A stretch of DNA of 64,000 bases from Promethearchaeota archaeon. GTDB lineage: Archaea > Asgardarchaeota > Lokiarchaeia > Sigyniarchaeales > SOKP01. Positions within the stretch are counted from its first letter, which is position 1; each line of letters opens with the position of its first letter. The stretch is from NCBI GenBank assembly GCA_016839705.1, contig JAEOTR010000057.1, positions 32,001-96,000 on the forward strand. The letters run 5' to 3'. Under the pieces are notes generated by a model, which did no database searches, was not told where the DNA came from, and saw nothing but the letters and a program-made list of their open reading frames with translations. Shown one piece after another: positions 43,978-64,000 of this stretch. The position numbers and the translations under genes are program-made.

Positions 43978-45651
43978 TTGTTTGATAAAGATTATTTGGA
44001 AAAGGTCAAAGAAGAAAAAGAGAAATGGGAAAAGCTCTATGAAAGCCTGAAAGAACGTGATGTTAGATTTGTAACCGACTCTGAAATTCCAATTAAGAAA
44101 TTGTATACTCCATTGGATCTCAAAGAGAACGACTATCTGAGCAATATCAGCTTTCCAGGAACCCCTCCATATACAAGGGGAGTTTATCCTTCTATGTACC
44201 GGGGGAGATTGTGGACTATGAGATTATTTTCAGGTCATGGAACTCCTGAAGAAACTAATAAAAGATGGAAATTTCTCTATGAAAACGGGGAAACAGGATT
44301 TAGTGCGGCAGTTGATGCATTAACTTTTAATGGAATTGACCCTACTAATCCGGATGGTGCTCCCGAAGTTGGAACATCTGGTGTACCGTTGTATTGTATC
44401 GATAGTCTGTTTGCTTTAACTGAAGATATACCAATAGACAAAATCAGTGTAGCATTAGTCGTTGAGCCTTTTACATCTGCACCTGTATGTGCAATGTATT
44501 TTAATATGGCCAAAATGCGCGGATATGACATAAGTAAATTAATAGGTACAACTCAAAATGACATTTTAACAATGACCGTAGGCTATATTCCTTATAAAAA
44601 TTGTCCTCCTAATCACATTCTACGTTTAGCATGCGATTTCATTGAATGGACCGTACCGATGAAAAATGTTCCAAATTGGCATCCTATTAATTTTACTGGA
44701 TACAATTATCGAGAAGGTGGAATTGATGCTGTCCAAGAACTTGGATTCGTATTTGCAAGCGCTTGTTCCCATATTGACAATCTTATTGAACGGGGATGGA
44801 GGGCTGATGATTTTGTAGGGCGTTTAGCTTTTCATTTAGCAGCCCATAAAGATTTTTTTGAAGAAATCGCAAAATTTAGAGCAGCTAGGAGAATTTGGTA
44901 TAAGTTAATGAAAAAATATGAAGTTAAAGATCCAAGAAATTTTGGTTTTCGATTCCATGTTCAGACTGCGGGTTCCTCTTTGACAGCACAATTACCTAAA
45001 TTGAATATAGTAAGAACTGCAATCCAAGCATTAGAAGCAAATCTCGGTGGTTGTCAATCATTGCACACTAATTCTTATGATGAAGCAATTTGCTTACCAT
45101 CTGAGGAAGCTGCTTTAGTTGCCTTAAGAACTCAACAAATAATATCAGATGAAAGTCGGATTCATAATACGATAGATCCTCTCGCAGGCTCATACTTTAT
45201 TGAATGGCTAACTGATGAGATCGAGGAAAGGGTGTGGAAGTATATGGATAAAGTCCAACAGGTGGGGTCGATTGACAAAGCCCTTTCGTCTGGATTTTTA
45301 TATAAGGAAATGAGGGATGCCTTCCATAAGAGAAAAACGCGTCTTGAAAGTGGTGATGAAATTATGCTCGGTGTCAATAAATATCCTGTTCCTTATGACG
45401 ATGTTACTGATGTATTTAGGACCAATAAGAAAGCAATTAACATTGAAGTGGACAGAATTAATAAGTTAAAAGCCAGAAGAGATAACGCAAAATTAGAAAA
45501 GATTTTAGATAAATTGCGGGATGTGTGCGAAAAAGAAGAAAATGTTATGCCTGTTATAATGGAAGCAACTAAAGAAGGGGCAACTGTGGGTGAAATCTGT
45601 GATATTTATAGAGAAATCTGGGGTATCTGGGAGCCTCCATTAGCAATTTAA
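43978..45651 (+). CDS. B12-dependent acyl-CoA mutase, large subunit (MCM/ICM family, atypical specificity residues)
   Basis: PYTRGVYPSMYRGRLWTMR, QND, EEIAKFRAARRIW, HVQTAG, QSLHTNSYDEA, DPLAGSY. Confidence 0.93.
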   Translation: MFDKDYLEKVKEEKEKWEKLYESLKERDVRFVTDSEIPIKKLYTPLDLKENDYLSNISFPGTPPYTRGVYPSMYRGRLWTMRLFSGHGTPEETNKRWKFLYENGETGFSAAVDALTFNGIDPTNPDGAPEVGTSGVPLYCIDSLFALTEDIPIDKISVALVVEPFTSAPVCAMYFNMAKMRGYDISKLIGTTQNDILTMTVGYIPYKNCPPNHILRLACDFIEWTVPMKNVPNWHPINFTGYNYREGGIDAVQELGFVFASACSHIDNLIERGWRADDFVGRLAFHLAAHKDFFEEIAKFRAARRIWYKLMKKYEVKDPRNFGFRFHVQTAGSSLTAQLPKLNIVRTAIQALEANLGGCQSLHTNSYDEAICLPSEEAALVALRTQQIISDESRIHNTIDPLAGSYFIEWLTDEIEERVWKYMDKVQQVGSIDKALSSGFLYKEMRDAFHKRKTRLESGDEIMLGVNKYPVPYDDVTDVFRTNKKAINIEVDRINKLKARRDNAKLEKILDKLRDVCEKEENVMPVIMEATKEGATVGEICDIYREIWGIWEPPLAI

Positions 45652-45669
45652 ATCTAAAGGTGATACCAT

Positions 45670-46068
45670 ATGGATGATAAGAAAATAAGAGTCTTGATGT
45701 CAAAACCGGGTATTGATGGACATTGGCGTGGTGGGATTGTTGTCTCAAGAGCAATTAGAGATGCTGGGATGGAGCTTATATTTGGTGGCTTTCAAAATGT
45801 TCAACAAATTGTTGAAGCAGCAATTCAAGAAGATGTTGATATTATTGGTTTAAGTATTCATTCAGGAGCACATTTTGCTTACACTCAAGAAATCATTGAC
45901 TTATTAAAAGAAAAAGGTGTTTTTGACGACATTATGATTCTAGTCGGAGGTGTTATTCCTGCCATAGACTTTCCAAAATTACGGGAAATGGGAGTAGCAA
46001 ATGTTTACGGTCCTGGAAGTCTTACAAAAGATATCATTGATTTTATTCAAAATAACGTCAAAAAATAA
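45670..46068 (+). CDS. Acyl-CoA mutase cobalamin-binding small subunit
   Basis: KPGIDGHWRG (DxHxxG), QEDVDIIGLSIHSGAH, GGVIP. Confidence 0.93.
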   Translation: MDDKKIRVLMSKPGIDGHWRGGIVVSRAIRDAGMELIFGGFQNVQQIVEAAIQEDVDIIGLSIHSGAHFAYTQEIIDLLKEKGVFDDIMILVGGVIPAIDFPKLREMGVANVYGPGSLTKDIIDFIQNNVKK

Positions 46069-46137
46069 AAAAACTATGCAATATTTTCTTTTTTAAATTA
46101 AAATATATAAGCTATTTTTTAATGGGGTTGCTATTTC

Positions 46138-47112
46138 TTGAAAAGGGACTACGACATTAATGATTTAATCACTAAATTTAAAAATAAGGATAAAATAGCC
46201 TTAGCAAGGTTAATCACAATCATAGAAAATGAACCAGATAAGGCTCATGAGATTTTCAGACATTTAGAAGATGTGAAAAATGATTCATACATAATAGGTA
46301 TTACGGGCTCTCCCGGTGTTGGTAAAAGTACTTTAACGGGTGAAATCTGTAAAAAACTCTTAGATGATGGAAAGAGGATCGGAATAATATGCGTAGATCC
46401 TACGAGCCCATTTAGTGGGGGAGCATTTTTGGGTGATAGGGTAAGGATGACTAATATTTCTTTACACCCAAATATGTTTTTGAGAAGCCTTGCATCAAGA
46501 GGATATAAAGGCGGAATTTCTAGAGCTGTCTTTGACATCAGTTTGTTATATGAAGCTTTTGGAATGGATATAATTATTATCGAAACTGTTGGTGTTGGCC
46601 AAGCTGAATTTGATATCTACAATTTAGTATATTCTGTTGTTGTGGTCCTAGTCCCTGGATACGGAGATGCAATTCAAATGCAAAAAGCAGGAATAATAGA
46701 AATTGGGGATATTTACGATGTAAACAAAAAAGATTTAGGTGGTGAAGACATTGCCGTTCAAATAGAAATGATGCTTGATGATTCCACTTTCCAGAGTGGA
46801 TGGAGACCACCTGTTTCTATGACTAATGCCATTTCCGGGGAAGGTGTGGATGATTTAGTGCAAAATATCATGGACCACAAGGAACATTTAGAATTATCTG
46901 AATCTATTAATGAAAAGAAAAAAAATAGGTTTAGGTATAAGATTAAGGAATTAGTGTATACAAAGATTGATAAAATCATCTCAGAAGGCTTTCTAAATGA
47001 AAACGAAATTAATGAGATTATAAATCATGCTCTAGATGATGGAAAGTTTAAAATTTATCGAACTATCCATAATAAATTCGAGGATGTAAATTTCGAAATT
47101 AATAAAAAATAA
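46138..47112 (+). CDS. meaB: MeaB/ArgK mutase-associated GTPase chaperone
   Basis: GITGSPGVGKST, VDPTSPFSGGAFLGDRVRM, ETVGVGQ, NKKD. Confidence 0.94.
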   Translation: MKRDYDINDLITKFKNKDKIALARLITIIENEPDKAHEIFRHLEDVKNDSYIIGITGSPGVGKSTLTGEICKKLLDDGKRIGIICVDPTSPFSGGAFLGDRVRMTNISLHPNMFLRSLASRGYKGGISRAVFDISLLYEAFGMDIIIIETVGVGQAEFDIYNLVYSVVVVLVPGYGDAIQMQKAGIIEIGDIYDVNKKDLGGEDIAVQIEMMLDDSTFQSGWRPPVSMTNAISGEGVDDLVQNIMDHKEHLELSESINEKKKNRFRYKIKELVYTKIDKIISEGFLNENEINEIINHALDDGKFKIYRTIHNKFEDVNFEINKK

Positions 47113-52391: not shown

Positions 52392-53519
52392 ATGAATGCA
52401 CATGAAAGAGTAATAAAAACGTTAAATCATGAAGAACCTGATCGAGTACCTCTTTTCTGTCAAGCAATAATGCCTGGATTCGAAAGAAATCTGATTAAAT
52501 ATTGGGGTAATGAATATAAGCATGATGAGAGATATGTTTTATATTTTAGTGATTATAACCTTCATAGAAAATTAGGTTTTGATCTTTGCTGGGGATTTGG
52601 TGTAGTTCCCGCCAAATTACCACGAAACTTTTTAAAAGATAACCCAACTCCACAATTAGATGATCCAAATAAAATTATTGATATTGATGGTAGGGTTTAC
52701 TTAAGAAATCCTGAATTCAATGTACCTTGGTATTATGAAAACTATATTACAACAGAAGAAATGGCAGATTATTTTTATGACAGATACTATTCAATAGAAT
52801 GGGAAGAAAACTCTAATTTTATACCAAAGCTCAATAAGACTTTAAGCAAATATCCCCTAGATGAGATTGTTCCTTGTACTCACATAAACAGTATTTTAGA
52901 ACCTATTTGGGAAGGTTTAGGATTATCTTTATTTACGAAGTTATTAAGAAAAAAAAGATCTAAACTCAAAAAATACATTGATTTAAGAACAAAAATCTCA
53001 GTAAAGGGAGCAAAAGTGTTAGCAGAAACTGATTTTGACGTTTTCTTTCTATGTGATGACACAGCGTTTAAAAATAGAACAATGATTAATCCTAAAGACC
53101 ATCGAGAACTAATTATTCCTGCTTATAAGAAGATTCTTCATGAGTTAAATAAAGCAGGAAAATATGCGATTTTTCATTCAGATGGTTATACTGAACCCTA
53201 CTTTGATGGGTTGATTGAGGCAGGATTTAAAGGGGTTGAATCTTTAGAACCAATGGCGGGCATGAATTTAAAACATTTAAAGGACACATATGGGGATAAA
53301 CTCTGTTTAATTGGGAATATAGATGTTTCAAAACTTTTACCTTTCGGCACAACAGATGAAGTTACACAATCAGTAAAAAAATGTATAAAAGATGCCGGTG
53401 AAGGTGGAGGATATATGCTGAGCGCCTGTACAGATATAACGAATGCATGTAAACTTGAAAATATTTTTACTATGATTTCTGCCACAAAGAAATATGGGAA
53501 ATATCCACTAAAATTATGA
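52392..53519 (+). CDS. Uroporphyrinogen decarboxylase / MtaA-CmuA methylcobalamin methyltransferase family
   Basis: ERV..TLNHEEPDRVP, DDTA, FHSDG, LEPMAGM, LIGNID, GGGYMLS. Confidence 0.88.
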   Translation: MNAHERVIKTLNHEEPDRVPLFCQAIMPGFERNLIKYWGNEYKHDERYVLYFSDYNLHRKLGFDLCWGFGVVPAKLPRNFLKDNPTPQLDDPNKIIDIDGRVYLRNPEFNVPWYYENYITTEEMADYFYDRYYSIEWEENSNFIPKLNKTLSKYPLDEIVPCTHINSILEPIWEGLGLSLFTKLLRKKRSKLKKYIDLRTKISVKGAKVLAETDFDVFFLCDDTAFKNRTMINPKDHRELIIPAYKKILHELNKAGKYAIFHSDGYTEPYFDGLIEAGFKGVESLEPMAGMNLKHLKDTYGDKLCLIGNIDVSKLLPFGTTDEVTQSVKKCIKDAGEGGGYMLSACTDITNACKLENIFTMISATKKYGKYPLKL

Positions 53520-56342: not shown

Positions 56343-59300
56343 TTAATCACTTAACAGTAATAATTCTTTTAGTTTTTCATTATTCAAATTAGAAATCCAA
56401 GATTCTCCGGTGGATGTCACGATTTTTTCTGATAAATCTCTTTTTTCCTCTAATAAAACGTCGATTTTTTCTTCAATTGTTCGATGTGTAATGAATTTAT
56501 ACACATTCACTACAGATTTTTGACCAATTCGATAAGCTCTGTCTGTAGCTTGGTCTTCAACAGCAGGATTCCACCACCTATCAAAATGAATAACTGTTGT
56601 TCCTTGAGTTAAATTTAAACCCGTCCCACCAGCTTTTAAGGATAAAATCAATATTGGAGGACTTTCAATTTCTTCTGATTGAAAATCGTCTATTATTTCA
56701 CTCCTTTTCTTTTCAGGGACACTACCATGAAAAAAGAGAATTTGAAAGTTATACTTCCATTCAAGTATCTTTTTTATAATTGTCCCCATCTGTGTAAATT
56801 GGGTAAAAATCAAAACCTTTTCCCCATTCGAAATAACTTCATCAGTCATTTCTAATAATCTTTCCAACTTGTTTGACAAGGAAATAATATGTTTTATATC
56901 TTTATCTGATGCTGTCGACACGATATCTTTCTTAAGGTATTGATAAGGATGGTTGCAAATTTGCTTTAATTTAACTAATAATGCTAATATTAATCCCCTT
57001 TTCTTTCTATTGTCAACTGTGCTGTCATCCAGTGTTAATAATATCTCTTCAGTAAGATCTTTATACAATTTCTCTTGCTCCTTAGTCAATTCAATTGTTA
57101 TTTTCATTTCATTTTTTTCCGGCAAATCCTTTATTATTGATCTATCCGATTTAACACGGCGTAAAATAAAGGGAGCTATGATAACCTTTAAGTCATTAAT
57201 AGCTTCTTGATTTTGAAATCGTTCAATCGGTAAAATATATTTTTCTTGAAATTCCTCTCTATTTCCTAAAAGGCCAGGATTTAAAAAATTAAATAGAGTC
57301 CAAAGTTCAAGTAAACGATTTTCTATGGGAGTTCCACTTAAACAAATTCTATATTGACTTTTCAATTTCGATATTGCTTGGGTTTGTTTTGAAGTATAAT
57401 TCTTCATATTTTGGCTCTCATCTATAATAATGCCACTAAAATGAATTGTTTCTAAGAAATCAATATCATTTCTAATAGTTCCATAAGATGTTAGAAAGAT
57501 TCTATGTGCTTTTAAAAATTCTGGAATCTCTGAGACTTTTTTATATCGATTAGGACCATGATGAAGTATTACTTCTAAATTGGGGGCAAACTTTGTAATT
57601 TCACGTTGCCAATTAAACAGTACTGAAGTAGGACATACAACTAAAATACTCCCCTTCTTATTTGGATAGTTTTCTTTTAGATAAAGCAAAAACGCAATTA
57701 CTTGAATTGTTTTACCAAGACCCATATCATCAGCTAAACACAATCCAAAATTAAGTTTTGTCATATTTCCCATCCATTTAACTGCTACTTCCTGATATTC
57801 ACGCAATTTTCCATTAAAAGATGAAGGACAAGAGATATCTTCAAAAGAATCGATAGATTGAATTCGATTAATTATTTCATTTAATTCTCCTTTGATAATT
57901 ACATCATATTTAGTACCATTATCTTGCAGTTGGACTTTGCCAATTAATCCTAATTTTAAAGCATCTAAATAATTTTCCACATGGAATTTCTTAATATTCC
58001 TTAAATCTTCGAGGTCATTTTGAGCAATTAATACCCATCTTCCATTTAAATTGACTAATGGGTCGTTAGAATTAATTAAGTTATTGAATTCTTCTTCTGC
58101 AATTTTCTTTCCTTCAATTCTAGCATCCCATTTAATGTCTAGCATTGATTCGATACCAAATAGAGATGGTAGAGCGCTAGTTACTCCTCTTTTTTTCCTC
58201 GCATCCTCTTTTAAACGAATAATTAAACGGGTGGTTAAACGTTGCTTTCCACCTAATGTAAATACTTCAGGTAGAACAACGTTGAACCCACTTTGGATTA
58301 ATAGATCTTTCGGATATTTTAAAAATTCCATTACTTCACTCGAGGTAAGTTTAATCTCATGTTGAATGTCTTCTAAAAAGGCTCTCTTTAGGGGCGGAAA
58401 TATTTTTGATGCGGTTCCCAGCGCTCTTAAAATTATTTCTAAGTATTGCTCATCACCGTTAACATTTTTTGAAAATAGTTCTTTTTTAAGTTCATGTCCT
58501 TCCCAAAGCTCATTTAAAGCTAGGATTTTCTTCCCATTTTGAAATGACAAGGAAATTTTTAATATCCAATCATCTTCTCCCGTTTCTGGATACTCTAATT
58601 CCAAATTTAATGTAAAATCATATCTTAATTGGAATCCTATAGCAGATTGAGTCCAATTCTGAATTAATACCGGTAAAATAGATTCATAGAATTCATCAAC
58701 CATAAAACTATTATCCTTTTTAATAAGTGTTTTAAGAAATTTATAATCCCAATTTAATCGAAAATCGGGGCTCACTTCTCTTTTTATCTCGGTGCTATAA
58801 AATTCATCAAAAGTTTGAAATTTGCTTTTCTTTAAGGTAGATCGGATCAAATAATCTCCAATACTATCCAAAAATACCGTAAAAAGGTAAGAAGGATGCC
58901 AAAGACCATTCGTTTTAATGACATCATTTTCATGAATTATATTTATCGGAAGACAAAAAGCTGACCAAGAACTATGATTTAAAATAGATTTAAAACGATC
59001 ATTATCATATTGAGATTTTAAAATTAACCTCCAATGACTATTGTACAATTTCTCTCCAGTTGGTTCGATTACAGGGACAAATTGACCTTTATTTAATAGT
59101 TCAAACACTAATTTTGTTAGAAGAGCCCATGTTTTAATGGAATTACTATAACGAATTCTATTTCGATCTGAATTTTCAATTATTTCCAATTGGTAAAGTA
59201 ATTTTGCGGCAGGTGAAATTGGTATGATTTTTCCTATATGTGAAATAATATTACATATTTTTTTTGGGGAGCTCTCTTTTTTTTTGGTTTCTGATAAATG

Positions 59301-59540
59301 ATTAGGAATTGCGAGGTTGATTTTACATGATAAAAGCTTTTTTGTAGGAATATCCGGAAAAGTATGATTAATATGCTCAACCAGTTCTTTCTCAGATTGA
59401 TTTGAAGGTATCCATAAAATAAAAAAACTACTGTTTTTAGGGAGTTGTTTTACTTTAGAAATCAATTCAAAATTACTTGCAGGCTCATTCCAATATGCTG
59501 CAGGAATATAAAGCGATTCAAGTTTATTAGCCAATTTCAT
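56343..59540 (-). CDS. SWI2/SNF2-family helicase-like ATPase (DUF3670-type)
   Basis: LADDMGLGKT, DESQ, SGTPIEN, ILRRVK, LKAGGTGLNL, DRWWNPAVEDQATDRAYRIGQ. Confidence 0.95.
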   Translation of the reverse strand: MKLANKLESLYIPAAYWNEPASNFELISKVKQLPKNSSFFILWIPSNQSEKELVEHINHTFPDIPTKKLLSCKINLAIPNHLSETKKKESSPKKICNIISHIGKIIPISPAAKLLYQLEIIENSDRNRIRYSNSIKTWALLTKLVFELLNKGQFVPVIEPTGEKLYNSHWRLILKSQYDNDRFKSILNHSSWSAFCLPINIIHENDVIKTNGLWHPSYLFTVFLDSIGDYLIRSTLKKSKFQTFDEFYSTEIKREVSPDFRLNWDYKFLKTLIKKDNSFMVDEFYESILPVLIQNWTQSAIGFQLRYDFTLNLELEYPETGEDDWILKISLSFQNGKKILALNELWEGHELKKELFSKNVNGDEQYLEIILRALGTASKIFPPLKRAFLEDIQHEIKLTSSEVMEFLKYPKDLLIQSGFNVVLPEVFTLGGKQRLTTRLIIRLKEDARKKRGVTSALPSLFGIESMLDIKWDARIEGKKIAEEEFNNLINSNDPLVNLNGRWVLIAQNDLEDLRNIKKFHVENYLDALKLGLIGKVQLQDNGTKYDVIIKGELNEIINRIQSIDSFEDISCPSSFNGKLREYQEVAVKWMGNMTKLNFGLCLADDMGLGKTIQVIAFLLYLKENYPNKKGSILVVCPTSVLFNWQREITKFAPNLEVILHHGPNRYKKVSEIPEFLKAHRIFLTSYGTIRNDIDFLETIHFSGIIIDESQNMKNYTSKQTQAISKLKSQYRICLSGTPIENRLLELWTLFNFLNPGLLGNREEFQEKYILPIERFQNQEAINDLKVIIAPFILRRVKSDRSIIKDLPEKNEMKITIELTKEQEKLYKDLTEEILLTLDDSTVDNRKKRGLILALLVKLKQICNHPYQYLKKDIVSTASDKDIKHIISLSNKLERLLEMTDEVISNGEKVLIFTQFTQMGTIIKKILEWKYNFQILFFHGSVPEKKRSEIIDDFQSEEIESPPILILSLKAGGTGLNLTQGTTVIHFDRWWNPAVEDQATDRAYRIGQKSVVNVYKFITHRTIEEKIDVLLEEKRDLSEKIVTSTGESWISNLNNEKLKELLLLSD

Positions 59541-59692: not shown

Positions 59693-60061
59693 TTGGTGAT
59701 GAATAAATTGGTCGATATAGAAAAAGTAAAAAAAATATTTGGGATAATCTGGCTGGTAATTTTAGTAATTTTGTTTATTGCTTATCCATACTTTCCAGGA
59801 GATATATTTTTCTGGATGTGGTTGGCAATAATTTGGGCCATAATTGGCGGAGTAATAGGCACAATATTTTTCATGACTGAAAGTAAAAGAAATGAAAAGA
59901 TAATTGGGATTATTTGGGCAGTTATTTTGGTACTCCTATGGCTTTTTTATCCTTTCTTTCCAGGTAATACTTTAGCATGGATGTGGACTGCAATAATCTG
60001 GAGTATAATTGGGTTTATCATAGCGATAAGTCTTTTTATTTTCAAAAGGATTAAAAAGTAA
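59693..60061 (+). CDS. Small four-TM Trp-rich membrane protein made of two tandem repeats
   Basis: KIFGIIWLVILV..YPYFPGD..WMWLAIIWAIIG and KIIGIIWAVILV..YPFFPGN..WMWTAIIWSIIG. Confidence 0.8.
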   Translation: MVMNKLVDIEKVKKIFGIIWLVILVILFIAYPYFPGDIFFWMWLAIIWAIIGGVIGTIFFMTESKRNEKIIGIIWAVILVLLWLFYPFFPGNTLAWMWTAIIWSIIGFIIAISLFIFKRIKK

Positions 60062-60289: not shown

Positions 60290-62095
60290 CTAAAATGATC
60301 CGATAGCGTCATAAGTATTCTTTTGTGATTTTCCCCTCTCCCATTCATTCCTAAGGATAAATTTCTGAATAAAATCATTTGCATTTTTTGGTAATTCTTT
60401 TTTAAATTCAATATAACGTGGAACCATAAAATATGCAAGGTTTTGCTTTAAAAAGTCATATAACTCTTTAGGAGTGATTTTAGCCCCTCTTTTAATTGTA
60501 GCACATATTTTTAATTCTTTATCAGTAGAATTTTCATCAATAACCTCAAAAACAGCGCTTCCAATAATAAGGGGATGGGAATTTGCTACTATTTCAATAT
60601 CTATCGCAAAAAATGTATGTTCTCCTCTTATAATCATATCTGATTTCCTTCCTAAGTAATAAATGAAGCCTTCATGATCTGAATAACCAAAATCACCGGT
60701 GTAAAACCATCTTTCCTTTCTTTTTCTCGGTGTCGTTTCATTTTGCAAGTTATAATATTCAAGGTCAAAAGGAAGTCTCAATCTTGCACAAATTTCACCA
60801 ATTTGATTCCGACCAGGAAGTTTTTCAATTCCTTCTGAATCAACGATTTTAACCTCAAATCCTACAGCCGGCTTTCCTATTGATCCGAGTTTTCCTCCTT
60901 TTGAACCTTCAGTATTAATTGTAAGTCCAATACCCTCAACTAGAGACCACATTTCGATAATTTGTGCTCCAAATCGTCTTTCAAAAGTTTCCCACACTTC
61001 TTTTAAGGCACCGGCACCAAAAGCGTATTGAATTGAATGATTTCTATCTACTTGTTTTGGTGGTTGATTTACTAATGCTGTTAAATATGCACCATAATAA
61101 CAAAAACAATTAGGTTTGTAGAGATTGATATCATTCCAAAAAGTTGAAATGTCAAATTTTTCTGCTATTATTATCGATCCATCAAAATATATTACGGGAA
61201 TTATTACAAAATATCGCGCAAATCCTTGAAATAATGGTAATGGACAATATAATTTTATTTTATCGTTATTAAATCCTAATTTTTCCCATCCTCTTCCAAT
61301 ACTAATTCCTGACAGAGTATAATAATTTCTGTACAAAACACCTTTTGGTGTACCCATAGTTCCTGAAGTGTATGAGATTTCAAGAGGATGATAATTATTT
61401 ACATTAATAGTCGTATTTTCTGAATTTTTTGAGAAGAAACTTTCAAAATCCATACTTTTTTCTTCGAATTTATAATCACCTGGAGCATTTCGAATAATTA
61501 TTTTCTTAATATTAGGTAAATTCTCTCTAATCTCTTCAAAATTAGGGTAATATTCATAGTCGATTATTAAAATTTCAGTTTCACTATTTTTCAAGACAAA
61601 TTCTAATAGGTCTTTTTTTAATAAATAGCTAATAGGTACAAAAATACATCCTGCTTTAGCCACACCAAACCAACAAAAAATAGATTCTGGACAATTAGGA
61701 AATATTAAAGAAATTTTCGGATTATTTAATTTTAATTTTTTATTTAATTTTATAAGTGCATGGGCTATTTGATTTGAAATTTGGTTTGTATCTTGATATG
61801 AATACATTTTGTCTTGAAAAAAGATAAATGGCTTATTTTTATTCAATGATGCTTTACTTTCTATTATTTTAGTGATTGTAGCGTCTTTAACTTCATATTC
61901 TTTTGTAAGTTCACTTAAATTATAGATCTTACGAATTTGCATATGCTCTCCTATTAAATCTACCAAGACTTCTTCTTTATCTCTAAAAGGAAAATCAAAA
62001 TCTTTAGAAATTTTACTGGGAATATAAACCCAATAACTATCATATCTACGATTGCCTGATTTCCTTTTTAAAATTCTTCCTTTTCCTGTTTTCAT
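60290..62095 (-). CDS. AbrB/SpoVT-like domain fused to a CaiC-like acyl-CoA ligase (adenylation) domain
   Basis: YTSGTMGTPKGV, YTGDFG, GRKSDMI, LAYFMVPRYIEF; N-terminal YWVYIPSKI.KD.DFPF.D.EEV.V.L....IRK. Confidence 0.85.
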   Translation of the reverse strand: MKTGKGRILKRKSGNRRYDSYWVYIPSKISKDFDFPFRDKEEVLVDLIGEHMQIRKIYNLSELTKEYEVKDATITKIIESKASLNKNKPFIFFQDKMYSYQDTNQISNQIAHALIKLNKKLKLNNPKISLIFPNCPESIFCWFGVAKAGCIFVPISYLLKKDLLEFVLKNSETEILIIDYEYYPNFEEIRENLPNIKKIIIRNAPGDYKFEEKSMDFESFFSKNSENTTINVNNYHPLEISYTSGTMGTPKGVLYRNYYTLSGISIGRGWEKLGFNNDKIKLYCPLPLFQGFARYFVIIPVIYFDGSIIIAEKFDISTFWNDINLYKPNCFCYYGAYLTALVNQPPKQVDRNHSIQYAFGAGALKEVWETFERRFGAQIIEMWSLVEGIGLTINTEGSKGGKLGSIGKPAVGFEVKIVDSEGIEKLPGRNQIGEICARLRLPFDLEYYNLQNETTPRKRKERWFYTGDFGYSDHEGFIYYLGRKSDMIIRGEHTFFAIDIEIVANSHPLIIGSAVFEVIDENSTDKELKICATIKRGAKITPKELYDFLKQNLAYFMVPRYIEFKKELPKNANDFIQKFILRNEWERGKSQKNTYDAIGSF

Positions 62096-62182
62096 TACAG
62101 CTTATTTAACTTACCAATGTGCTATAGTAATTAAAGAATCCTATAGTAAAAAATATGCCACTAATTTAACTTTTCTAAAAAT

Positions 62183-64000
62183 TCACTTTAAAGGTATTTG
62201 ATCATATTCTTGCTTTATCGTAGGAAATTTGTCAAGATTATAGTGTGGAAAATAGAGAGAGAAGGTATATTCGCTCTGAAATATTGGTGATGATGCAATT
62301 TCTCGATATCTAATTTTATAAGCAATTTCATTTGCCAAATATCTTTGCTCGAAATCTTTTATAAATAATTGTGCCCCTACACCCGCTGAATTCCCTATTT
62401 GGAAAATGTTATCTTGATCAACTTCAGGGAATAAACCTATAAAGGCAGCACTTTTTTTATTAATATAAGTTCCAAATCCACCTGCTAGAAGAATCTGCTC
62501 AATATCATTTACGGTTTTGTTTTCCATTTTAAGTAATATATTGGCTGCAGCTAAGAATGCTCCTTTTGCTAATTGAAGCTGATTTATATCCTTCTGAGAA
62601 ATTGTAATTTCCCTAATAATATCTTGATTAGTATCTGTTTGAAAGGATTCATTATCCCATTTTTCACTGTATATAATGTAATGGTATCCATCTTCTTTTT
62701 TCACAACCCTTCGGTGTTTAATTACTTCTTCCAATTTACTATTAAATTTTCCAGCGCGAGTAATAATCTTTGATTTCAACATTTCAGCTACAATATCAAT
62801 AAGTCCCGAACCACATAATCCAAGTGGGGTTTGGTTTCCTATTACATCTATAGAAGGTTCTAATGTTTCTCTATCTATAATTACTGATTCAATTGCACCC
62901 TCTGAGGCTCTCATACCATACGAAATATGAGCACCCTCCAAAGCTGAACCTGCAGCGCATGAACCTGCAACAAGACCTTTCCTATTTCCCATTACAAGTT
63001 CTCCATTAGTCCCAATATCAATCAATAGAGAATATTTTTTGAATGTATTAATTTTAGATGATATAATGCCTCCAATTGTATCTGTTCCTACATAACCTGC
63101 AACCACAGGAGGAGAATATACATTTACATTTGGATTACATTTAATACCAAGAGTACCAGCTCTTAAATTAATTGGAGCTTTAAATACGGGATTGTAAGGT
63201 GAAACTGCCAAAAACTCAGAGGGTATTCCAAAAACCATATGGTGTATTGCTGTATTACCTACAATAGAAATATCTCTTACTTCTGAAATAGAAATGTTTG
63301 CCTTATTACAACAATCCTCGAGTATTTGATTAATAGCATCAATAATTAACTCTTTAGCCATATTAATCGCGTTATTCTTTACGATATGAGTAATTCTTGA
63401 AATTATATCTTCGCCGATCATAATTTGAGGATTCAACAGTGCTGATATAGCCGCAATCTCACCTGTTTTTAAATAAATTAGATATCCAACAATAGTTGTT
63501 GTACCAATATCTAATGCTAATCCAAATAACTTGTCAGATACATTTCCCTCATCAATATCATAAAGTACCCATGGTTCGTCCAAGGACAATTTTCGGAAAA
63601 AGGCTGTTATTTTACCATTTTGATTTCTCAAAATATATGGAAGCTTTTTTATAACCTCATAAAGTGAATCGTTTAAAAAGCATAACATGGTATCATTAAA
63701 TATTTTAAATTTATCGCTTTTTGCTATTACAGCATCTTCTAGACGAGACAAATCATTCTTTGGATTGTTTATATCTGCATTTTTTACTTCAAATAATTGG
63801 GAGGTAATAATAGGTTGAATTTTAATGTTATTATTGATTCCAAGGGATTCTAAATCTGAATCAACTAAAATTCTGGGACCTTTTGGAATTAATGAATCAG
63901 TAAGATATATTCTTAGATCTCCTAAAATTTTTGTTTGACACGTTAACCTGTAACCCTCTGATATTTTTTCATTGCCTAAAATTTTTATTTCTTTCTCGGT
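62183..64000 (-). CDS. ASKHA-ATPase reductive activator of corrinoid proteins (RACo/DUF4445); 5' end beyond the window
   Basis: DIGTTT, NPQ..GEDIISRI, DIGTNGE, AAGSALEG, GLCGSG, LAKGA, LAGGFG; frame stays open to the window end with GYRLTCQ ([2Fe-2S] ferredoxin tail). Confidence 0.93.
   Translation of the reverse strand, partial: TEKEIKILGNEKISEGYRLTCQTKILGDLRIYLTDSLIPKGPRILVDSDLESLGINNNIKIQPIITSQLFEVKNADINNPKNDLSRLEDAVIAKSDKFKIFNDTMLCFLNDSLYEVIKKLPYILRNQNGKITAFFRKLSLDEPWVLYDIDEGNVSDKLFGLALDIGTTTIVGYLIYLKTGEIAAISALLNPQIMIGEDIISRITHIVKNNAINMAKELIIDAINQILEDCCNKANISISEVRDISIVGNTAIHHMVFGIPSEFLAVSPYNPVFKAPINLRAGTLGIKCNPNVNVYSPPVVAGYVGTDTIGGIISSKINTFKKYSLLIDIGTNGELVMGNRKGLVAGSCAAGSALEGAHISYGMRASEGAIESVIIDRETLEPSIDVIGNQTPLGLCGSGLIDIVAEMLKSKIITRAGKFNSKLEEVIKHRRVVKKEDGYHYIIYSEKWDNESFQTDTNQDIIREITISQKDINQLQLAKGAFLAAANILLKMENKTVNDIEQILLAGGFGTYINKKSAAFIGLFPEVDQDNIFQIGNSAGVGAQLFIKDFEQRYLANEIAYKIRYREIASSPIFQSEYTFSLYFPHYNLDKFPTIKQEYDQIPLK

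Follow-up and report, generated by a model that had tools for sequence, protein, structure and literature searches.

AbrB, MazE, VapB, SpoVT, and Sso7c4 are DNA-binding proteins. In adenylate-forming ligases of the ANL superfamily, a lysine in the A10 motif is required for formation of the adenylate. Operator binding and adenylate chemistry meet in BirA, a fully active enzyme in which the bound adenylate governs dimerization and operator binding, and PutA is known for local autoregulation. Here, we analyzed a gene whose product joins an AbrB-like domain to an ANL ligase body in a single chain. The gene lies in a 64,000-nucleotide stretch of DNA from a Promethearchaeota archaeon (assembly GCA_016839705.1, contig JAEOTR010000057.1, positions 32,001 to 96,000 of the forward strand); this whole stretch is referred to as the window, and coordinates without a further label are positions in it. 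With somewhat better than even confidence, we favored the interpretation that the fused protein is a one-component, probably autoregulated transcription factor, and we inferred its DNA binding, its ligand sensing, and its loss of catalysis from sequence and predicted structure. The gene and its parts are as follows.

60290..62095, minus strand: whole fused gene (AbrB-fold domain plus ANL body), one open frame of 601 codons plus a stop
61922..62095, minus strand: N-terminal domain, residues 1-58, a divergent AbrB/MazE/SpoVT-like swapped-hairpin domain according to a predicted model and structural matches
60782..61858, minus strand: ANL N-terminal (AMP-binding) domain, residues 80-438 (Pfam PF00501, E 6.4e-49)
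61340..61372, minus strand: A3 P-loop YTSGTMGTPKG, residues 242-252, intact in the translation
60377..60598, minus strand: ANL C-terminal domain (AMP-binding_C), residues 500-573 (Pfam PF13193, E 3e-07)
60371..60373, minus strand: codon of Phe575, which takes the place of the A10 catalytic lysine in alignments to solved ligases

A preliminary description of this DNA, made from the letters alone, had quoted several ligase motifs, and translation of 60290..62095 placed all of them where that description had put them: the P-loop YTSGTMGTPKG, WSLVE (residues 383-387), TGD (466-468), GR (482-483), and GEHT (491-494). The same description had read a Phe in place of the A10 lysine at codon 60371-60373. 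This reading was borne out by the translation, in which PKNANDFIQK is encoded at 60362-60391 with Phe575 inside it, and by phmmer alignments to three solved ligases, in which Phe575 faces the A10 Lys of 4wv3, 6qjz, and 5ie0 (TATGKIQR, TATGKILR, and TASGKIQR, respectively). The best NCBIfam matches of the ANL body were PRK06187 (top), PRK06155, and PRK08008/CaiC-type families (E 1e-71 to 1e-80), with all scores far under the equivalog cutoffs. The G+C content of the fused gene (24-35%) was in line with its surroundings. About 15-19 ANL paralogues were present in the window's genome, and the N-terminal extension was found only on the fused protein.

A homologue search covered 5.8 billion proteins and listed 120 clusters. 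Among the matches listed, more than 100 clusters shared the fused architecture, with 39-87% identity to the window protein. Specifically, all 105 representatives of 590-640 amino acids began with the same domain of about 58 residues (about 41-87% identity). The source labels of the named clusters were Lokiarchaeota, Promethearchaeota, or Thor-, Hermod-, or Hodarchaeales metagenome-assembled genomes, all of which are Asgard archaea. The preliminary description had allowed that the fusion might exist only in this assembly; because more than 100 Asgard clusters share the architecture, an assembly artifact could be discounted, and the fusion is the mark of a family. Among 301 sampled Asgard genomes, about 28 carried fused copies, full-length or contig-truncated, that scored at least 281 bits, compared to 255 bits or less for the top non-fused ligase match. 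All but one of the positive genomes belonged to a single family, and some held two or three copies. One metagenomic relative was represented by a 135-residue N-terminal piece (P0124) and a 442-residue ligase piece (P0047), both from 6832-bp contigs; this split was likely to be a frameshift or an assembly error rather than a natural split.

The N-terminal domain was modeled with AlphaFold2 from an 89-row alignment, and the model had a predicted local distance difference test (pLDDT) value of 88.8. Its fold was β-β-α-β-β, with strands at residues 7-13 and 18-24, a helix at residues 27-30, and strands at residues 43-48 and 51-56. The Foldseek list for this model consisted mostly of MazE, AbrB-type VapB, SpoVT, AbrB, C56 of pSSVi, and Sso7c4, and all 23 entries listed by VIA-align were AbrB-fold proteins, the best of which (Sso7c4, 5itj) gave a Z score of 4.7 and a root mean square deviation of 1.8 Å over 46 residues. 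A homodimer of the domain was predicted with an interface score (interaction prediction score from aligned errors, ipSAE) of 0.56, compared to 0.00 for the best control; this mark was attained by 20 of 30 solved homodimers and by 1 of 23 single chains. Three runs agreed in at least 97% of the contacts, and the partner pLDDT was at least 73. The predicted dimer was symmetric, with about 160 contacts that included the symmetric contacts 23:23 and 53:53. Strand 1 was paired with strand 3', and each of strands 2 and 4 with its mate, a pairing that fits a swapped-hairpin barrel. The AbrB-like N terminus and the swapped-hairpin dimer anticipated by the preliminary description were thus supported by the modeled fold, the AbrB-fold structural matches, and the homodimer prediction.

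The first hairpin was strongly basic: the net charge of the first 20 residues was +7 in the window protein and +6 to +7 in five of the six members checked (+3 in the sixth). Across the fused family, the conservation of the N-terminal 58 or so residues equaled or exceeded that of the ligase body, and these residues carried the signature W22-x-Y24-x-P26 ... F35-P36-F37. When a profile of 38 fused N termini was run exhaustively against 1.84 billion representatives, 440 proteins were found at E ≤1e-3, most of which were stand-alone proteins of 55-90 residues. Weak matches to PF04014 (MazE/AbrB; best E 1.3e-4) were observed for 26 of the 70 stand-alone homologues tested, and 5 of the 70 matched SymE, also weakly. 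A joint profile reached MazE chains at an E value of about 1. A word-based search for shorter domain-bearing proteins returned only contig-end fragments of the fused family, and the stand-alone relatives were reached by the profile search.

About 400 stand-alone relatives of 55-90 residues (P0140-P0274; loci L034, L036, and L038) shared the signature IYIP...DS.FPF and were mostly unannotated. Some adjoined TnpB/IS605 genes or an integrase in an apparent integrated element. The three stand-alone contexts that we examined were a TnpB/IS605 neighborhood, an integrase-flanked element, and an unrelated housekeeping region. The idea of a Rosetta-stone arrangement, namely, a stand-alone domain beside a ligase without the N-terminal extension, was rejected because none was present in these three contexts.

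If the fused protein is a DNA-binding regulator with two-fold symmetry, a palindromic site might be expected to accompany it. Upstream regions of 150 nt were taken from the fused genes of 13 genomes, and their alignment contained TTTAC-N4-(A)G followed by TTTAC-N4-GTAAA, the two units being about 19-20 bp apart. Within about 150 nt of upstream sequence, the proximal unit TTTAC-N4-GTAAA was perfect in 8 of the 13 regions and had no more than one mismatch in 10 of the 13. Its center was about 25-30 nt ahead of the start codon. In the window, the two units are as follows.

62137..62150, minus strand: distal upstream unit TTTACTATAGGATT, left half-site kept and right half degenerate, aligned with the distal unit of the orthologues
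62118..62131, minus strand: proximal upstream unit ATTACTATAGCACA, located 23-36 nt ahead of the start codon, with three mismatches to the palindrome, from the alignment with the orthologues

The pair TACTATAG...TACTATAG upstream of the fused gene was unique in the 3.36-Mb genome, and in a complete 3.3-Mb relative one exact copy of the palindrome lay just upstream of the fused gene. The palindrome also preceded the fused gene in contexts that contained neither the corrinoid operon described below nor any common neighbor. These contexts were a thiolase and ligase cluster (L014), a divergent intergenic region between the fused gene and a Liv-type ABC transporter in which three sites were present (L016), and the loci L030, L032 (two identical copies), and L049-L051. 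A site with no more than one mismatch was present in six of roughly seven independent contexts of the fused gene, compared to a background per 150 nt of 1.3% genome-wide and 1.8% in AT-rich windows, with the proviso that motif statistics of this kind are affected by the shared ancestry of the genomes. The fused protein was the sole predicted DNA binder that traveled with the palindrome across contexts. We also considered the palindrome as a general promoter element; this candidate was rejected because the exact palindrome occurred 7 times in the window's genome (16-44 times in shuffles) and 10 times in the complete relative (15 times for the reversed-pattern control), which was not above the controls.

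The palindrome also accompanied the operon next to the fused gene. In this operon, which ends 87 bp before the fused gene, a DUF2284 gene comes first and is followed by genes for a B12-binding protein and a RACo-type activator.

62183..64000, minus strand: 3' part of the gene for a RACo-type corrinoid reductive activator, last in the DUF2284/B12-binding/RACo operon, which extends beyond the end of the window
G000:C46:97820-97833, just outside the window: operon promoter palindrome TTTACGTCAGTAAA, exact

In the DUF2284 promoter (G000:C46:96969-97833; L052:2967-3834), TTTACTGACAAG sits 19 bp upstream of TTTACGTCAGTAAA. The exact palindrome was located 75-100 nt upstream of DUF2284 in both the window's genome and the complete relative. 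In all seven genomes examined, the DUF2284 promoter contained the palindrome preceded 19-20 bp away by a TTTAC unit, and a further copy about 80-85 bp upstream was exact in three of the seven and near in one. The DUF2284 protein showed 84-95% identity within the genus, compared to 65-81% for the fused protein. A DUF2284 orthologue was present in 15 of the 301 genomes. The fused gene was found in every one of these, and in 13 of them it was 3-5 kb away on the same contig. No DUF2284 orthologue was found in any of the five near-complete genomes of the same genus that were without the fused gene. The fused gene was the more widespread of the two, with at least 10 genomes having it without the DUF2284 operon. 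These co-occurrence counts are descriptive and do not amount to a statistical test, since the genomes are related. The palindrome upstream of the fused gene and the DUF2284 operon is new here, and the presence of this conserved and genome-rare sequence at both the gene and its co-occurring operon suggests independent support for a role as a transcription factor.

Elsewhere in the window, at 43978-47109 on the plus strand, a methylmalonyl-CoA-mutase-type large-subunit gene was present together with genes for a B12-binding small subunit and a MeaB GTPase, and a Fer4-nitroreductase gene came next. A URO-D/MtaA-like methyltransferase gene at 52392-53516 may encode the MT2 partner of the corrinoid operon.

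Palindromes or similar sequences were also observed at a few other genes. The palindrome-like units TTTACTATAGTAAC and TTTACTTTGGTAAA, whose starts are 15 bp apart, were present about 35-65 nt upstream of purH, the gene for AICAR transformylase/IMP cyclohydrolase (G000:C27:27490-27545; L053:2990-3045), and these sites are possibly an extra target or possibly a coincidence. An exact palindrome was present 85-100 nt upstream of a gene for an aldehyde:ferredoxin oxidoreductase (AOR) paralogue in the window's genome (G000:C74:285-298, L062) and in a relative (G301, L060:1573-1586), and the two paralogues were 71% identical; an AOR regulon was a weak lead. An exact palindrome upstream of a 3-hydroxyacyl-CoA dehydrogenase gene in the relative was likewise a lead only.

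With regard to the ligase body, the model of the complete protein had a pLDDT of 85.8 and fitted best on ligases in the adenylate-forming conformation, either ATP- or adenylate-bound, with template modeling (TM) scores (TMt) of about 0.8 for 4wv3, MatB, and 4CL. Conservation was computed over 109 sequences of the fused family. The residues G245, W383, E387, K402, and G433 were 100% conserved, K251 and D468 were 99% conserved, and G248 was 96% conserved. In terms of motifs, the A3 P-loop, A5 Glu387, and A7 Thr466-Gly-Asp468, which bind nucleotide and Mg, were all present and were 96-100% conserved. The A10 column had a different character: it contained Leu in 38 sequences, Phe in 26, Glu in 23, Met in 5, Lys in 5, Arg in 4, and other residues in 8. 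The commonest residue accounted for 35%, which placed the column at the 11th percentile of ANL columns; hydrophobic residues (Leu, Phe, or Met) made up 63% and Glu 21%, and the Lys was gone in about 95% of members. The other catalysis-specific columns behaved like average columns, the commonest residue reaching 46% at the A5 Thr, 61% at the A8 Arg, and 59% at the A4 His.

Two lysines were considered as substitutes. Lys578, which is three residues past Phe575, was 94% conserved in the fused family, and the preliminary description had named this downstream lysine of the QK pair as one that might sustain normal activity. This rescue was not borne out, since Lys578 is an ordinary motif residue that is also present in paralogues of groups A and B (described below), including those that keep the A10 lysine. 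Lys402 was rejected because the canonical paralogues have the same Lys. Taken at the level of sequence, the conservation data indicated that the fused protein is a structural ANL member that is better not classed among canonical active ligases, and we infer that its ligase body may be a catalytically inactive sensor of a ligand.

The order of lysine loss and fusion was examined with a likelihood tree of the ligase part. The tree was rooted on distant paralogues and came from a quick search with a long-branch outgroup and a single rooting. Canonical group A (PKTPTGK) was placed outside a clade formed by non-fused group B and the fused family, with Shimodaira-Hasegawa-like approximate likelihood ratio test (SH-aLRT) values of 100 for the joint clade and 100 for the fused clade. 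All 10 group B sequences had Arg at A10, in the motif PKS/N-x-VHR, and the basal fused branches (L031, L032, L033, and P0118) had Arg as well. Because both carry Arg, it appeared that the Lys-to-Arg change predated the fusion and that the basic residue was abandoned afterwards. The derived fused clades had Leu, Phe, Met, or Glu, and one subclade had Lys. This pattern fits a catalytic constraint that was gradually relaxed in the fused lineage. In the case of the co-occurrence of fusion and lysine loss that the preliminary description had looked for, the results were divided: the Lys was gone in nearly all fused members as described above, but the loss was not tied to the fusion, given the Arg of the sister clade and the Lys of one fused subclade.

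Group B itself was multi-copy and non-fused and was found within acyl-CoA clusters. In the window's genome, its genes were located at G000:C42:93682-101869 (L003, L004, and L006), and relatives were present at L018-L025. All 10 sequences had Arg for the A10 Lys (PKSEVHR) and Asp for the A5 Glu (YGAVDGGG). Group B may consist of ligases with an unusual catalytic pair, or it may be a second inactive set.

The interpretation that we favored, a one-component transcription factor, can be put together as follows. The N-terminal AbrB/MazE-fold domains of two chains would interleave to form a two-fold symmetric DNA-binding module, and this module would read the palindrome TTTAC-N4-GTAAA. The second unit, 19-20 bp or two helical turns away, would allow two dimers to bind the same face of the DNA. 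The ANL body would be derived from a CaiC/PRK06155-like acyl-CoA ligase, with the nucleotide pocket kept and the catalysis-specific residues no longer conserved, and it would sense ATP or AMP plus a carboxylate, an acyl-adenylate, or an acyl-CoA. DNA affinity could be set by the large rotation of the ANL domain or by ligand-dependent oligomerization. In this clade, the putative targets would be the gene's own promoter and the adjacent DUF2284/corrinoid protein/RACo operon; in other clades, they would be neighboring ABC-transporter and acyl-CoA genes. Many archaeal repressors act by occluding the TATA/transcription factor B recognition element (BRE) region, and a dimer on the proximal site would block this region.

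A number of observations weighed against this interpretation. In the case of the N-terminal domain, residues 1-60 and 1-70 had no Pfam match at E values up to 10, and the fused-family N-terminal profile had no match in PDB sequences. The Foldseek E values were 0.86 or worse, with TM scores of about 0.5, for a domain that is very small. The best Z score of 4.7 falls short of the level for safe fold matches, and the passing dimer score may owe something to the model's memory of solved AbrB-type dimers. In the case of the palindrome, the proximal sites of the window gene and its two closest relatives were degenerate, with three mismatches each. The proximal site is near the expected TATA box of a short-leader archaeal mRNA and may thus belong to the promoter itself or be bound by a different factor, and no AOR-upstream site was found at the best AOR matches of four other fused-positive and five fused-negative genomes. 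In the case of the ligase body, an Arg that was already present in the non-fused sister clade weakens the equation of lysine loss with a dead enzyme; the sister ligases have Arg and five fused members have Lys, so that the loss of the lysine is no proof of inactivity. Because the direct Pfam and PDB-sequence searches were empty, the AbrB assignment rests on transitive and structural evidence, from which we assigned the N-terminal domain, with good but not crystallographic confidence, to the AbrB/MazE fold as a divergent member.

The main rival to the transcription factor interpretation is a BirA-like bifunctional enzyme-repressor, in which the ANL body would have retained the ability to form an acyl-adenylate or acyl-CoA, either at a slow rate or by way of a replacement basic residue such as Lys578, and the bound adenylate or product would be the co-regulator for DNA binding by the AbrB-fold domain. 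The intact P-loop, Glu387, Thr466/Asp468, and overall fold are all compatible with this idea, as are the adenylate-forming conformation of the model and the strong conservation of Lys578. The A10 Arg of the basal fused members and of the non-fused sister clade could keep some activity, and an operator-like motif fits an enzyme-repressor equally well. However, Lys578 is just as much a feature of canonical paralogues with an A10 Lys and so does not look like a relocated catalyst, most fused members have a hydrophobic residue or Glu at A10, and the variation at A10 is accompanied by drift at the A5 Thr, the A8 Arg, and the A4 His, which would be unusual for a working enzyme. We considered this alternative unlikely.

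A protein without a regulatory role was also considered. It would be a ligase of metabolism, or a scaffold resembling one, whose AbrB-fold domain serves only for dimerization or for docking to other proteins, such as the corrinoid or RACo proteins, and the palindromes would belong to another regulator or to promoters. Many ANL enzymes are dimeric; within the genus, the fused gene is the final one behind the DUF2284-corrinoid-RACo genes, and its gains and losses coincide with theirs; and the degenerate sites of the window and the overlap of the proximal site with the expected TATA position would be readily explained. On the other hand, those structural matches whose function has been described are DNA binders, and five of six members have a strongly basic first hairpin. 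The palindrome is still present beside the fused gene where neither the corrinoid operon nor a common neighbor occurs, and its genome-wide frequency is far too low for a general promoter element. Because of the basic hairpin, the DNA-binding relatives, and the traveling palindrome, a purely enzymatic role is less likely, and we regarded the scaffold as quite improbable. It is also conceivable, at a very low probability, that the N-terminal domain binds RNA or is a toxin-antitoxin-type module (SymE/MazE-like) with a post-transcriptional or addiction role. The weak SymE matches of 5 of the 70 stand-alone homologues and the mobile contexts of some of them, beside integrase or TnpB genes, would suit such a role, but no toxin partner adjoined the gene in any context examined, the fused family has been kept by vertical descent in one archaeal family, and a conserved DNA palindrome accompanies the gene.

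Two further open reading frames lie between the fused gene and a pair of helix-turn-helix (HTH)/ICMT genes in the window: a 1065-residue SNF2-family-like helicase at 56343-59540 on the minus strand and a 122-residue membrane protein at 59693-60061 on the plus strand. In the relative G301, the HTH/ICMT genes directly follow the fused gene, and this suggested that the helicase and membrane-protein frames are an insertion in the window's genome.

A broader proposal follows from the transcription factor interpretation, and we put it forward tentatively, as a possibility that falls a little short of even. Under this proposal, the fused proteins would be the first transcription factor family with an ANL-fold sensor: an Asgard-specific family with a retired ligase pocket and TTTAC-N4-GTAAA operators that would switch a DUF2284-corrinoid-RACo methyl-transfer operon here and transporter or acyl-CoA genes elsewhere. 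Asgard archaea are the closest prokaryotic relatives of eukaryotes, and little is known about the regulation of their transcription. In this case, sequence alone was enough to propose a regulator together with a candidate operator and target operon, which makes the hypothesis directly testable in vitro. If the proposal is true, the ANL fold would join the short list of enzyme folds that have been recycled as ligand sensors of transcription factors, and the family would be a natural case of stepwise retirement of a catalytic residue, from Lys to Arg to a hydrophobic residue. The ligand of the regulator would also point to the substrate of the DUF2284-corrinoid-RACo operon, which has none known.

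The fused protein can be compared with several known systems. Like PutA, with its ribbon-helix-helix domain, and the archaeal AbrB-PhoU fusions, it has a small, predicted DNA-binding domain and a metabolic-enzyme-like module in one chain, with probable local autoregulation. It differs from PutA-like enzyme-derived sensors in the fold that would do the sensing; the open-access literature that was searched yielded no description of a transcription factor with an ANL-fold sensor or of an AbrB-ANL fusion. The CaiC/PRK06155-type ligases and Asgard group B are close to its ligase body, the former as the best NCBIfam matches, and a C-terminal tail ending in T-x-D is shared. In contrast to the fused clade, in which A10 is variable and mostly hydrophobic, group B is without the N-terminal domain, keeps the A4 His and A8 Arg, and has Arg in place of the A10 Lys and Asp in place of the A5 Glu.

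As for the AbrB/MazE/SpoVT/VapB/Sso7c4 proteins (PF04014 clan), the N-terminal domain resembles them in its β-β-α-β-β unit of about 50 residues, its predicted interleaved homodimer, and its basic first hairpin. The palindromic candidate site matches the two-fold symmetry of such a dimer, and some of the stand-alone relatives of the domain match PF04014 weakly. The domain is different in that it falls under every Pfam threshold, has its own W22-x-Y24-x-P26 ... F35-P36-F37 signature, and is joined to a 530-residue ANL partner. The best functional analogy is BirA, in which an N-terminal DNA-binding domain and an adenylate-forming module are found in one chain. BirA combines a winged helix with a class II aminoacyl-tRNA synthetase-like ligase, whereas the fused protein combines an AbrB fold with an ANL body, so there is no relation between the folds, and BirA is an active enzyme, whereas the catalysis-specific residues of the fused protein are unconserved.

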